NCBI GenBank assembly: GCA_032718475.1
Contig: JAUCBJ010006289.1
Coordinates: 1 to 64,000, forward strand
From: Nemertoderma westbladi
Taxonomy: Eukaryota > Animalia > Xenacoelomorpha
DNA length: 64,000 nucleotides
Direction: 5' to 3'
In this document: in pieces, positions 7,490 through 56,645 of the stretch
How the letters are laid out: the number at the start of each line of letters is the position of its first letter
Position numbering within the stretch: the stretch's first letter is position 1
The notes under the pieces: model-generated
Database searches by the model: none
What the model was told of the DNA's origin: nothing
What the model saw: the letters and a program-made list of their open reading frames with translations, nothing else
Made by a program: the position numbers and the translations under genes

Positions 7490-9299
7490 TTAATTTTGTA
7501 ATTAATCTGTATCTTTGATTAAGGTTTGTTTGGAAAACCGAGATTTCGTGACTTTTCCTAAAATTTAATGGGTTATCCAACAGAGCAAAAGCCATTTACA
7601 TGGGCATGTTAGTTTTCGTGCTGTGCTCCCTTTCTGGCACCCATCTCCAGTACTTTCGTACTAAGATTTTCAATAGTTTTCATAATTCACTAAAATTAAT
7701 TTATTTGCGATATTTAGCGGTTTTTTGGATGCTGAAAGCGATTATAGAACTGCAATATTACATTCGTGAAATTTTTTGGTAATTTTTAAAGTGTCACCTG
7801 GGGTACGAATGAAACAAGTAGTGCAAATATGTTAGTCAAAAATCACGCCATGAGCTTCAGTTCATTCAAATTTCGCCTCCTTCCTGTTGGTACATGACTT
7901 GAATTTGCACAACTCAATGCAATGCAATGATGTTGATGTTTGTTTTGTAGGCAGATACTGAGTGAGTACAAAACAAAGATTCAACACACAATTATAAAGA
8001 GACCTGCATAATCATCTAACATGTGTTAACTTTCGTTTATTGTTTTGGTTCCCCCAAGACGCCTCATTAACGTGTTCCTTTACTAACCTGCTCCTTTAAA
8101 TAGCAATGGGAATTATTGCCCTTATGGACCTAACGCGACTTCACCTCTTTGTTTTGTACAGAACAGGCAGATACATGTTGGTGGTTTACAATTGCAATAC
8201 AGCAGAGATAGAGAGACAGGATAGATTATGGAGCTGGTAGAACATACATCCAATCAGGTATTACCATATCCTACTCATCTAACAGCCATCCCAGACCTAT
8301 GGGAGAAGATACATTGATGATGGATACTAAGCTTATATACGATTGGTAGTTGGCTCTGGATAGATGTCTCTCTTTAAACAATATTTACAAGGTGGCAGGC
8401 AGCAAGGTTGACTCGATTTCTCCATGTTTTGAACACACCTATATATTTGCCCGGATGTATCTATTTGCTCGGATGACATCATCGCATACCAATTAAGAAT
8501 ACGTACATACATGATTATGTACTTATTATTAAATAAAGAGGATTTTGTATTCAAAAATGTTACTATCGATGGAATCATCTTTGCAGAAATCATCAAGGAA
8601 AAATTATGATAAATATATAAATTGAAGTGAATATACTAAAAGAACTAACCTCTCTTTTGTGGTAGGTGTCATATTTTATTGACATAAATATTTATTAAAG
8701 TCATTATTTTGAAACATAGTGGAATGAGATTTAAATGATGAAAAATAAAAATATTTCAAACATGGGTATATCTTTGGAACCATATATCACCGTTATAACA
8801 TAACAGGTTTAGTTCTCAGTATACCAAAATTTTCCAAAACTAACATTCAATAAAATGTGGTAATTTGTTTTTAAAATAATGGTATTGTTCTAGAATGGTA
8901 GCTATTTTTCTAAAACATGTCAGTTTTTATTTAGCAGCATTCCCATGGCAACAATAATTATATTCCAGAATTTTATGTCACATTTAGAATTGTTAGACCA
9001 GTAGCTATCTTTTTCAAAAGATGCGATGAATTTATATTGAGTTATTCGAATACTACAGCATGTTTGTTATTTTACCATTTCCATGACAACTGGTGATAAC
9101 ACCAAGTCAGCTACCGATTCAGATTTGTTATCATATCAAAATGAATGGCCAGAAGCTAGGTCTTCCCAAAAATATAAGTTCTGGGTGGTTACCAAAAAGT
9201 ATCCCCTATGCTGGCTGGCCCATGGACTATATTAGAATGGCCTTCTCACACTCAGCAATTTTATTATGTGGTTTACAGTCGCAATGAGAACCAGGAGAT

Positions 9300-38689: not shown

Positions 38690-38804
38690 TGTAGTGAGCG
38701 CGATTCTCGCATTAGCGCGACTCACATCATTTCAAAGTAATATATTACAGTCAGGAACATGTACTATGTTGACACCAGGAGGTTCGATATCTGTTACCGC
38801 TACA
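38690..38804 (-). repeat. 3' LTR (115 bp)
   Basis: Identical to 42749-42863; preceded on the minus strand by PPT GGGGGGAGTAG. Confidence 0.95.
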
Positions 38805-50800: not shown

Positions 50801-51564
50801 TTAATGTTAGGCTCTCTTATAGTTTGCCGTGCCACCTATATATACAACATAATTCTATTTAGATTGTAATATACTCTACGAACAATTACATTTTGTTACG
50901 TTTAACTTTTTTATACTAGCTAGTTTTTGTTTCTTTTTTTTAAATGTTCTAGAACTAGCACTAGCTAATTTGTTAATTATTTTAATTTTTTATTGTATGT
51001 TATCTTTGTATAATTTTTACTAGAATATTTTTACTAGAAAGGCATTTCCTAAAGGAAATGCAACCACGAAGCTAAGGAAAATTAAACACACTTTGACTCA
51101 TCAGTTCATTGGTTTACCTAGTTAAGTCATAGGTCTTAATTAAACTCCAATCACCATGGCAACTGGAGTTTTCTAGAACTGCTTGGTTTTACATTAAGAT
51201 CCAGTTTGTAGTTCCGTGACACAAATTGACTTCGAGGAAGTTTCATTGAGTAGCTGATGTCCAAAATTAAAGATGTATTTTTGTTAAAACATCAGTTTGC
51301 AGTGGTTGTCTTGGAAACTGATGAATATAACAACGTTAATTGGATGCAGAATAAGTGATATAGTGGGGGTAGGGGTTGGTCCCAAGTCGTAATATCTTAA
51401 TGTTATGGTTTAAATAATCATTTTATAAATTTGAACATCTGTTTAGCCTGGTTGCCCTGGTAACTAAATTTTCTAATTGACCTCAATAAGTGAAACTATT
51501 GTCCTTATCATTGAGTTGAAAAATTTAAAGTTTCGATCTAATGTAAAATTCAAACGTCGAATTC

Positions 51565-51792
51565 ATGTTTCTGCACATATTATTGGGAACATACTTACCG
51601 TGTTCTGCGCCTAATGTTGGAAACATACTTACCGTGTTCTGCGCCTATTGTTGGAAACATACTTACTGTGTTCTGCGCCTATTGTTGAGAACATACTTAC
51701 CGTATTCTGCACATATTATTGGGAACATACTTACCGTGTTCTGGTCTATTATTGAGAACATATTTACCGTGTCCTGTGCCTATTATTGAGAA
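51565..51792. repeat. 34-bp minisatellite (AACATACTTACCGTGTTCTGCGCCTATTGTTGGA), ~6.5 copies
   Basis: Head-to-tail units without unique spacers. Confidence 0.9.
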
Positions 51793-52898
51793 ATGAGATT
51801 GATTCAAACACATGAAAAATTACATTCAAGGAACAGCTATTTACATTGCTTCAAACACATGTAAAATTACATACAACATCTATTTACATAGCTTCAAACA
51901 CTTAAATTAAGAATGTTTAGTAGCGAAAAATGCAATTGATTTGTAAATAAATAGAACGAAGTTTTAACTTCAATTAATAACAAAAAGCACAAATATGTGA
52001 ATATTACATTCGGGAACAGTTTGGACCCATTCTAACTATACACCAGGACCCGTAATATAGTGTCATTTTCTGATGACACGGACCCCCCCCCCCCCCCCCC
52101 CCCCCCCCGTTTTTTTATACAAATCTTTATCATATTGTTTGAAATTTGAAACGCAACTAGTTCAACTCACCGTGGTTGTTACCATGAAGCCGGAATTTTC
52201 AATTTCGCCTTTAAATTTTATTTATAAGCGTTTTAAAAAACATGATAATATTCATTTACAAATTGGTCAAAAAGTGGGCACCCAGGACACACTAATGCCT
52301 ATATAATAATGGTGGTTAATATATAAATGACCCAAATCTAAATTACCATGAATATAATGCAAGGAGCAAGCTAAATTCAAAATTGCAATGTAAAACAAAC
52401 TAGCTTTAATTCAAACAATAGTGTTCAACAATGTTTATATTAGTTGTCATGGAAACGCATTAAGCTCCTTTAGGAAATTTGCTTTGTCATACTGTATACT
52501 AAATAACTTGCTCCACTTACAGGACCGTTTTAGAATATATTTTAAGGGGGTTGGGTGGAGGGAGAAGTAGATAATGAATGTGATGTACTCAAGGACAACT
52601 CTACTACTACTAATTCTAGTAGAGTTTTCCTTGGATGTACTACTAATGAATGTTTATTTCTGGACCATTTCACAATAAGTTCTATCATATGTTTCAACAC
52701 ATGCAGTGTCCCTGAAACTTTCCTTGTTTACCGGTAGATTAAGTGAATATTAATGATTTTTATATTAAAACAACTGTTTGAAGCGGTTGTCATGGAAACA
52801 GAAAAATTGAAAAATTTAATTAGGATGCAGAATAAGTGCTATTGCGGGGTAGGCGATGCTCCTATAGAATAAGTCATAATATATTTTATAATTTAATT

Positions 52899-52952
52899 AG
52901 TGTTTCGTCCGGCATCAGGACTCATCAGCAGTACTGCCATGTACTGGACACC
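52899..52952 (-). ncRNA. Type III hammerhead ribozyme
   Basis: Minus strand GGTG-TC / CAGTAC-ATGGCA-GTACTG / CTGATGA / GTCC-TGATGCC-GGAC / GAAA-CACT. Full consensus core, GUC cleavage triplet, three paired stems. Confidence 0.9.
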
Positions 52953-53186
52953 TGGGATAGCAAAGGGCGCCCTGCTTCTGCTAGCGGACTACAGTACGTA
53001 GGGTAGGTAGGATGCGGCTACGTCCAAAATGAGGGAACATACAGCCAAAGGTTAGAAAACCAAAGGGTTCGTGTCAAGTAGTCGAAATTCACATAAGTTA
53101 GCATATAGCTTTCACATGTCCATATAATGCTATGTTTATAAAATGCTTTCCGTTCACATTGGAAGGGGAGGGGGCCAAGTCTTTGT

Positions 53187-53655
53187 TCTTCAGTCTTCAT
53201 TCTTCATTCTTCAGTCTCCGTTCTTCATTCTTCGTTCTTCACTCCTCATTAATCAGTCTTCGTTCTTCAGTCCTCATTCTTCAGTCTTCGTTCTGCAGTC
53301 TTCATTCTTCAGTCTTCATTCTTCAGTCCTCATTCTTCAGTCTTCGTTCTGCAGTCTTCATTCTGCAGTCTTCGTTATTCAGTCCTCATTCTTCAGTCTT
53401 AGTTCTGGAGTCTTCGTTCTTCAGTCTTCGTTCTTCAGTCCTCATTCTTCAGACTTCATTCTGCAGTCTTCGTTCTTCAGTCTTCGTTCTTCAGTCCTCA
53501 TTCTTCAGTCTTCGTTCTTCAGTCCTCATTTGTCAGTCTTCGTTCTTCAGTCTTCGTTCTTCAGTCTTCGTTCTTCAGTCCTCATTCTACAGTCTTCGTT
53601 CTTCAGTCTCCATTCTTCGTTCTTCACTCCTCATACTTCAGTCTTCAGTCTTCAG
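53187..53655. repeat. ~14-bp degenerate minisatellite (CTTCAGTCTTCGTT)
   Basis: About 30 tandem units seen directly. Confidence 0.92.
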
Positions 53656-53657
53656 AC

Positions 53658-53822
53658 AAACGTTGTAGGGGTTGTTGACCGAGCAACTGACGTTGTAGGG
53701 GTAGCAGACCGAGCAACCAATGTTGTAGGGGCACTGACTGAGTGACCAATGGTGTAGGGGTCGTTGACCAAGTGAACGACGTTGTAGCGGTCACCGACCA
53801 AGCACCGACATTGTAGTTGTCA
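53658..53822. repeat. ~30-bp tandem repeat (ACGTTGTAGGGGT..GACCGAGCAAC), ~5 copies
   Basis: Seen directly. Confidence 0.8.
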
Positions 53823-55361: not shown

Positions 55362-56645
55362 CCCGACAACACTACTTTAACTGAATCACTATTCACAACC
55401 TGCAAAACTGTACATAATGGTTGATCAATGTATAAAGTAGGGGAGTTTGGAAGATTGATTTCCCATGCACTTTTACTCAAGGCAACAATTTCTAGAATAT
55501 TACTACCACTACTGCTACTATGTGTTACAAGTGGTTGGAGGTTAGTATTCTTATTTTGCAAAGCTGCATTTTTTTTACTTTCTACTACAGTATTATGTAT
55601 CTTTTTCAAAGACGAACTTTTTGCAACATTTTTTGCTGGCTTTGCTTTCATTGATTGTTGGTATTTATATATTTCATCCCTTTCAGCATTAGAGAGTATT
55701 CGTGGTGATTTGGACAATAGATACTCATTTGAATTAGACATTTTCAAAATAACCTCTTCGATCGCATTTTGCTTCAAAATATGTAGTGGTAATTGTGAAG
55801 ATAAAATTAGTTTGACAATAACATCGGTTGCAGATATACCTTCCTTCCATTGTTCACTTACTTTATCTGCAATTTTATTTTCCCTTTCAGTCCAGGTTGT
55901 CCCATAGCTGTCACCTTTTCCTACAGCTTCTTGCCGAAGAGTGATTTCTGCTTTTATCCTTAGGGACCACTCAAAGATTTGGGAATCAATCACATTTGGA
56001 TTGAGTCTTTTGAATTTTTACTTCCATATATGAAGGAAACTGACCTTCAGGTATATGCATGTCAGATAGTGCACTTACCCTGGAATTTGATACTAATACG
56101 AGCCCAGGTATATATGCATGCTCACGAACTGAAACTATATCCTTTTCGGGTGATGCACCCTGTCCTTTAAAAGCTGTCTGAGCATCAGCACCTTCTAAGG
56201 GATGTCCATATCTTATTTTTGGTACAGCCTTCTTTTTTGTTGTTTTTAGAGGCTGCCAGGTGACTGGAATTGGTACAAAATCTTTCATTTCTGGGTGTCC
56301 TAATATATTTGGACCACCCATATTTGAATAATTGCTTACTCTTATGACCTGGTAATCTGGAAGTGCTGGAGGGTTCTGTGGCAATTTAAAGGTTGCTTTA
56401 AATTCCTCAGGTAAATCTGCAAGCATTTCAATAGTTGCTGTTTCTCCATTTATTAATATCAGATTACTTCTAACAGGGAGTTGTTTAATTGGTGATGATT
56501 GAAGGTCAATGGGCTTTGTTGTCACCAGACCATTGAGTGCATTCTTAAGTATATTGTTTTTAATATTAAGTTCATATGTGTTATCAAAATATAATGGACC
56601 TATATATTCATATATTCCCCCATTAAAAAGTCCAAGAGCAGAATT

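Follow-up and report, generated by a model that had tools for sequence, protein, structure and literature searches.

The 64,000-nt stretch of Nemertoderma westbladi DNA analysed here (the window) carries a type III hammerhead ribozyme on its minus strand (52952-52899) that is multi-copy and sits where a Helitron-like element appears to end on its 3' side. A sequence-only reading of the window had pictured this ribozyme without any mobile-element context, a picture that must be abandoned. We propose, at about even confidence, that the repeated hammerhead forms a terminal module on the 3' side of a low-copy HLE2-type transposon and would cleave the transcript of the element that carries it. What is new would likely be the combination, with a known ribozyme subtype in an unexpected host element, a Helitron-like DNA transposon.

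The sequence confirms the motif as a real type III hammerhead for which self-cleavage is predicted. Its conserved type III core (CUGANGA, GAAA, NUH) joins three helices, of which helix III is open, and the motif belongs to the subtype with a 6-bp stem I, a 4-bp stem II and a loop1-loop2 pseudoknot. Stem III pairs 52952-52948 with 52903-52899 through four Watson-Crick pairs and a terminal G-U; stem I (52946-52941/52934-52929) has 6 bp and the loop AUGGCA; the core segment CUGAUGA (52928-52922) leads into stem II (52921-52918/52910-52907), with 4 bp and the loop UGAUGCC, and the core segment GAAA (52906-52903) follows stem II directly. C17 is 52947, and the predicted cut lies between 52947 and 52946, as the sequence-only reading had placed it. 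Its stem lengths (6 bp, 4 bp and an open stem III of 4-5 bp) are confirmed, and its claim that every core nucleotide matches on the minus strand is borne out by the coordinates, by a descriptor search that finds one site in the window and by a score of 31.4 bits with the Rfam model RF00008.

The covariance search that the same reading had suggested as a check is favourable by its E-value (1.2e-4), although 31.4 bits lies below the gathering score of 48.5, a curation threshold that represents no structural feature; for this reason the ribozyme is missing from a gathering-threshold Rfam scan of the window, which is empty. A phage hammerhead likewise scores below it (37.5 bits). The hammerhead fold (-13.1 kcal/mol) lies close to the minimum free energy fold (-13.3 kcal/mol) with the pseudoknot left uncounted, and the folding energy by itself is unremarkable (z about 0), so that free energy alone lends no support. 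A solitary host-domesticated ribozyme (like Clec2 or HH9/HH10) or a chance match would agree with this low score and z-score and with the single copy in the window, but we regard both as very improbable. The strict descriptor has no match in 300 first-order Markov simulations of the window (the loose form has 0.02 per window), the same architecture occurs in phage contigs, the context is that of a transposon, and the motif is multi-copy in three sequencing runs, which largely refutes a solitary origin.

Phage relatives place the motif within a known class. A fixed-length pattern with loop pairing left unspecified gave 25 matches in viral contigs and one in GTDB genomes. Nine of these 26 matches (6 distinct) have the 6/4-bp geometry, 11 fall into a different type III class and 6 lack stems; the single GTDB match fails to form stems. 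The window motif was aligned with the six distinct phage sequences, which were picked for stem geometry, with loop pairs playing no part in the selection. All 6 stem I pairs and 2 of the 4 stem II pairs change on both sides in this seven-sequence alignment, counts that lean toward structure because the rows were picked by stem geometry. Two of the four loop1-loop2 pairs never change, a third covaries (A-U in five sequences and G-C in two, the window among the latter) and the fourth is broken in 3 of 7. The complementary GGCA/UGCC noted earlier in the two loops thus stands for three pairs, which are kept in 7/7 sequences with one compensatory change, and not for the fourth, which is kept in only 4/7. 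A 3-bp loop1-loop2 pseudoknot is therefore likely in the window ribozyme. Given six distinct phage hammerheads with the same geometry and a covarying loop pair, the motif is, judged by sequence, a member of the known pseudoknotted type III subtype. L032, L033, L037, L042, L044 and L046 are phage type III hammerheads whose loop consensus matches that of the window motif; in the second phage class of 11 matches (e.g., L030 and L031), stem I is 7 bp long and the loops differ. A pseudoknot is described as common among type III motifs whose stems differ by two pairs, and pseudoknot disruption slows a type II ribozyme (Perreault et al. 2011, PMC3088659).

The gene upstream of the ribozyme identifies the likely host element. 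A broken Pif1-helicase and ubiquitin-protease gene lies 1.5 kb upstream on the minus strand, collinear with the ribozyme, so that the ribozyme is oriented in the same sense as the transposase gene. The earlier statement that no Penelope ORF is visible holds in the window, yet this decayed RepHel-USP gene on the same strand was overlooked by it. Reading from the ribozyme toward the gene, a multi-copy 3' module recognized from contig alignments (53186-52953) is followed by tandem arrays (53187-53799) of 14-bp (33 copies) and 30-bp (4.7 copies) units, which are like the central repeats of Helentron/HINE elements (PMC4067079). In other copies the module is about 110 bases longer near 53035; the added sequence includes 53110-53145 in inverted orientation. 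The frameshifted ubiquitin-specific protease (UCH; 55376-54455) matches Pfam PF00443 with E-values of 1.5e-9 and 3.8e-9. It adjoins the C-terminal half of a Pif1-like helicase (motifs V and VI) with a helical region (56645-55377), while the N-terminal helicase part (motifs II and III and the 2B domain; residues 1845-2111 of the relative P0012) lies at 61690-60819; both parts are frameshifted. A 4.2-kb non-LTR retrotransposon (minus strand, 60818-56646) with a 7-bp target duplication (60825-60819 and 56645-56639) interrupts the helicase, and residues 2068-2111 of P0012 map to 60951-60820 and residues 2110-2332 to 56645-55998. This insertion is near-complete with a few frameshifts, carries Ulp1 protease, reverse transcriptase and restriction-like endonuclease motifs, and presumably resembles the CRE/NeSL group. 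The window's own copy of the element is dead because of the frameshifts and the retrotransposon insertion. The window holds the helicase and USP parts; the Rep part of the gene, the element's 5' end and its subterminal repeats lie outside it. ORFs between 49.5 and 57 kb comprise helicase, USP and a transposase-like fragment (Pfam on 23, 10 and 5 selected frames).

Assignment to Helitron-like transposons rests on relatives of the helicase. A full HMMER search with the helicase fragment finds 52 relatives at E up to 0.001; a word-based search with the same fragment gave no match among longer proteins. The long relatives are each one protein, 2,500-3,200 aa in length, that combines Pif1 with a C-terminal UCH, OTU or Macro domain (12 scanned). 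Their mid-region has an HUH motif and a YxxKY motif, which we take to be the Helitron Rep motifs. Pfam Helitron_like_N and DUF6570 have no match in the relatives' Rep region, and this lineage is called divergent for that reason; PF23343 matches it weakly (E 0.0015). In the ESM Atlas, all of the 10 best matches with a family carry Helitron_like_N or its clan (best 0.95, 200 shared features), and DUF6570 occurs in only some Atlas clusters. The full profile matches Helraiser (7lcc, E 2.6e-7), with the best stretch in the helicase. A phmmer search of the Rep region against the PDB gave no match, and a structure model of this region had a mean pLDDT of 51, so poor that Foldseek and VIA-align gave nothing meaningful from it. 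In the HELIANO survey (Li et al. 2024, PMC11417382), UCH domains belong almost exclusively to HLE2. The RepHel relatives, the Rep motifs, the Atlas matches to Helitron_like_N and the UCH domain indicate that the upstream gene most likely belongs to a divergent Helitron-like transposon of the HLE2 type. P0001, P0012, P0019, P0048 and L028 represent a divergent lineage of intronless RepHel genes of about 3,000 aa with UCH, OTU or Macro tails.

Related loci were sought in viral and metagenome sequence. A viral scan with the full alignment found 24 generic Pif1 loci (386 kb) with no type III descriptor match, and four family-specific viral scans confirmed no relative. A metagenome scan yielded two relatives (L027 and L028) among 132 stretches. 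L027 stops inside the gene, 455 nt beyond the match, and is too short for a downstream check. L028 (36% identical) has an intact ORF and 1,834 nt after its stop, in which neither Rfam nor our own model finds a hammerhead; the only informative relative therefore counts against a terminal module (0/1). An 8-bp hairpin (7880-7910) and a long (ATT)n tract (8060-8180), 0.9-1.1 kb after the RepHel stop of L028, are candidate 3' end features read by eye.

Copies of both the ribozyme and the gene body are evident in contigs from public DNA runs of the same species label (X1, X2 and X3), which represent two samples, with X2 and X3 from one sample (S2). Depths for gene body, ribozyme and single-locus flank are 225, 215 and 56 in X1, 176, 361 and 73 in X2, and 642, 1591 and 114 in X3 (where body contigs range over 288-642); contig depth is no copy number, and flank-normalised values for X2 and X3 differ 2-3 fold. 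By contig depth, gene body and ribozyme are both multi-copy in all three runs. At 56645 the body contigs depart from the window sequence and continue, so the retrotransposon is missing from other copies. The earlier observation of no second copy is true within the window, where no second ribozyme was found, but it does not extend to the contigs, which contain several copies and a second family. Run X5 has no contig over the ribozyme, which is not proof of absence.

The check for copies and shared flanks that had been proposed alongside the motif, made on these contigs, shows that the shared sequence ends at about 52900. Summed depth jumps there from 95 to 995 in X2 and from 43 to 2317 in X3, and contigs begin exactly at 52900 in X1, X2 and X3, with those of X1 and X3 matching the window over 59/59 nt. 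The apparent end of the sequence common to most copies of the window's repeat family (family 1), and likely the element's 3' end, is at 52900-52898, at the base of stem III. Base 52899 is variable between copies, a minority of copies continue into the window's flank, and one other family-1 locus shares 20 further bases. The window has CTAA at 52900-52897, but the variability of 52899 argues against a fixed CTRR end as in HLE1, the canonical Helitrons. A solo-LTR reading, with CA at 52902-52901, was dropped because 52900 is common to the high-depth contigs. Beyond the ribozyme, the DNA aligns with a high-copy host repeat from 52899, significantly only from 52862; the matching site in the host repeat copy is T|T, the kind of site in which HLE2/Helentron elements insert, but it falls in a part of the alignment that is insignificant alone (127/2000 shuffles). 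Two diverged copies of a very high-copy dispersed repeat occupy 51180-51500 and 52600-52899, with a summed contig depth of 10^4-10^5 at 51200-51600.

Direct linkage of gene body and ribozyme is seen only in the window because no contig bridges the satellite. This absence of a common contig for module and body is what would be seen if the ribozyme ended an independent 300-400-nt element, either type III retrozyme-like or non-autonomous, that adjoins the Helitron-like element only here. Such an element would also agree with the consensus module, which has a long inverted repeat as in structured retrozyme RNAs, and with ribozyme depths 2.0-2.5 fold over the body in sample S2 (ratios of 2.05 in X2 and 2.48 in X3). 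We consider it quite unlikely, since depth is at parity in X1 (0.96), body contigs reach into the 30-bp array at body depth, and non-autonomous derivatives would be expected to supply surplus ends. The window contains no second ribozyme, and the contigs show no head-to-tail joint spanning the motif, unlike in tandem animal or two-LTR plant retrozymes. Animal non-LTR retrozymes consist of type I motifs in tandem 150-450-bp units, and here the motif is type III with one copy in the window; the two type III motifs of plant LTR retrozymes, with LTRs 600-1000 bp apart, do not occur within the window; and a Penelope reverse transcriptase or GIY-YIG ORF adjoining the motif is absent among the ORFs of 49.5-57 kb.

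A second repeat family in the same genome bears the ribozyme in another setting. It matches the window only over 52902-52952 (45/51 nt, 6 differences), its flanks are unrelated, and the three bases that follow would make up a 5-bp stem III; its depths are 168, 359 and 684 in X1, X2 and X3, respectively. In X1 and X3 its contig extends 105 nt beyond the ribozyme, and X2 has the same loose end. With this extension, and the one family-1 copy that runs 20 bases on, the motif is not always terminal. In family 2 the ribozyme is followed by an AT-rich tract.

The main rival to a transcript-cutting role is passive capture. Here the element would have bypassed its old terminator and captured a neighbouring hammerhead repeat, of which family 2 is a possible donor; one of its hairpins would serve only as a DNA end signal and cleavage would be incidental. 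In the prevailing capture model, as described in PMC6431247, the terminator is bypassed and a hairpin further downstream takes its place; the same ribozyme does occur in another repeat context of this genome, and L028 has no hammerhead. Conservation of the ribozyme relative to the body is not significant: no substitution is listed over 52900-52956, and zero changes in 57 nt is compatible with a body divergence of about 2.5% (about 1.4 changes expected). Against capture, the two families share only the 51-nt ribozyme with no flank, the ribozyme is sense to the transposase gene, and the core bases and loop pairs are intact in high-depth family-1 contigs whereas the adjacent 50 nt are riddled with indels (52957-53005 has 6 substitution rows and several indels). 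On balance we find passive capture somewhat unlikely and retain the terminal, transcript-cutting module as the best explanation.

If the ribozyme is such a module, RNA polymerase II transcribing RepHel-USP would continue across the satellites and the 3' region. The interval from the USP stop to the ribozyme contains no AATAAA and a single ATTAAA (54358). The ribozyme would fold with its 3-bp loop1-loop2 pseudoknot and cut after C52947, 1,508 nt past the USP stop, leaving the element RNA with a 2',3'-cyclic phosphate. The polymerase-bound remainder would be exposed to a 5'-3' exonuclease, and transcription would stop at the element border and not continue into host DNA. Hammerheads placed in Pol II transcripts of HeLa constructs cleave while transcription is still under way, and 5'-3' exonucleases then degrade the RNA bound to the polymerase before termination (PMC2288634); by such exonuclease decay a ribozyme cut could halt read-through into host DNA.

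A role in DNA form is more speculative. In a single-stranded DNA fold of the region, the hairpins of stem I and stem II lie 29-31 and 7-9 nt, respectively, from the apparent end, which is within or at the edge of the 8-35 bp given for HINE palindromes (Thomas et al. 2014, PMC4067079). As single-stranded DNA hairpins, stems I and II may correspond to the 3' stem-loop seen in HLE2 elements, and a dual RNA and DNA-end role of the ribozyme hairpins is possible on the basis of these folds. A predicted 7-nt arm complementary to the substrate strand (minus strand, 52972-52966), 14-20 nt upstream of stem III, could compete with the active fold by pairing with the 5' side of stem III, C17 and the first stem I base; this pairing is all Watson-Crick in the majority variant and includes two G-U pairs in the window. 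Predicted blocked and active folds are within 1 kcal/mol of each other (-22.4 versus -21.4 and -26.3 versus -25.9 kcal/mol), and stem III is predicted at only 0.15-0.34 in its flanking context. The arm may act as a folding switch or merely slow cleavage. A broader scenario, which we think unlikely, is that some Helitron-like DNA transposons recruited a phage-type pseudoknotted hammerhead as a dual-use end, which as RNA would cut and terminate the transposase transcript, possibly with a two-state folding switch, and as a single-stranded DNA hairpin would end rolling-circle replication, and that the ribozyme was swapped as a module between families.

Other mobile DNA lies elsewhere in the window. 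A Gypsy-type element (minus strand, 42697-38826), whose 1,067-aa pol frame is intact and which also has a gag-like frame, has an identical 115-nt direct repeat at 38690 and 42749 and is nested in an inverted-repeat element. Other minus-strand features include a THAP/P-type transposase fragment (13351-12242), a copia-type integrase fragment (22327-21776) and a LINE reverse transcriptase-like region recognized by eye (64000-62077), which lies upstream of the fragmentary Helitron-like gene. An uninterrupted 484-aa alpha/beta-hydrolase lipase frame is also on this strand (18336-16882).

Animal genomic hammerheads are mostly type I and reside in retrozymes and Penelope-like elements (PMC7229834, PMC7761336, PMC6155905, 10.64898/2026.07.22.740005), in line with the sequence-only reading. 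Pseudoknotted type III hammerheads have been described in the genomes of Drosophila pseudoobscura, termites and dipterans (de la Pena et al. 2021, PMC7936874). With these insect cases, a type III hammerhead in an animal is not new alone, and novelty lies in the host element. The type III hammerheads of Perreault et al. (PMC3088659, RF00008) are alike in core and topology, but those described have phage and bacterial hosts in contrast to the likely host here, an animal DNA transposon. The insect and HDV-like hammerheads (PMC7936874) are alike in type, in occurrence in animal genomes and in a Watson-Crick GCC/GGC loop contact; in them, helix I is extended and contains an internal loop and helix II has 6 bp, whereas the window motif is compact. 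Termite hammerheads are described as isolated, with no ORF within 2 kb, whereas the window motif is multi-copy and follows a RepHel gene.

Among transposons, HLE2, Helentron and HINE elements (PMC11417382, PMC4067079) resemble the element and its relatives in HUH and Pif1 RepHel proteins with a downstream UCH or OTU, in internal tandem repeats and possibly in a stem-loop near the 3' end; the main HELIANO text, in which HLE2 is described, does not contain the word 'ribozyme' (PMC11417382). Retrozymes, Penelope-like elements and Terminons (PMC7229834, PMC7761336, 10.64898/2026.07.22.740005, PMC6431247) also carry hammerheads, at the 3' end in the case of Terminons. They are retroelements, whereas the single type III motif here lies at the apparent end of a DNA transposon, which has no RNA intermediate; hammerheads described in animal retrozymes and Penelope-like elements are type I in tandem or pseudo-LTR arrangements, and plant type III motifs are in two LTRs. 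IStrons (PMC13565253) are alike in joining a ribozyme to an HUH or serine DNA transposon, with ends that have RNA and DNA functions; as described there, they are bacterial and carry a 5'-side group I self-splicing intron and no small self-cleaving motif. Repbase reports and most subscription journals aside, no published description of a hammerhead in a Helitron was found.

The small self-cleaving ribozymes of eukaryotic mobile DNA in the literature searched are retroelement-borne and process an RNA intermediate. A DNA transposon has no RNA intermediate, so a selected terminal hammerhead would mean a different job, which would be transcription termination, insulation from the host or message control. 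If the ribozyme is passive cargo, it is a modest curiosity. If the terminal-module explanation is true, the ribozyme would be a compact, testable handle on transposase expression and 3' end definition in Helitron-like elements, and it could explain some of the 'isolated' type III hammerheads of animal genomes.
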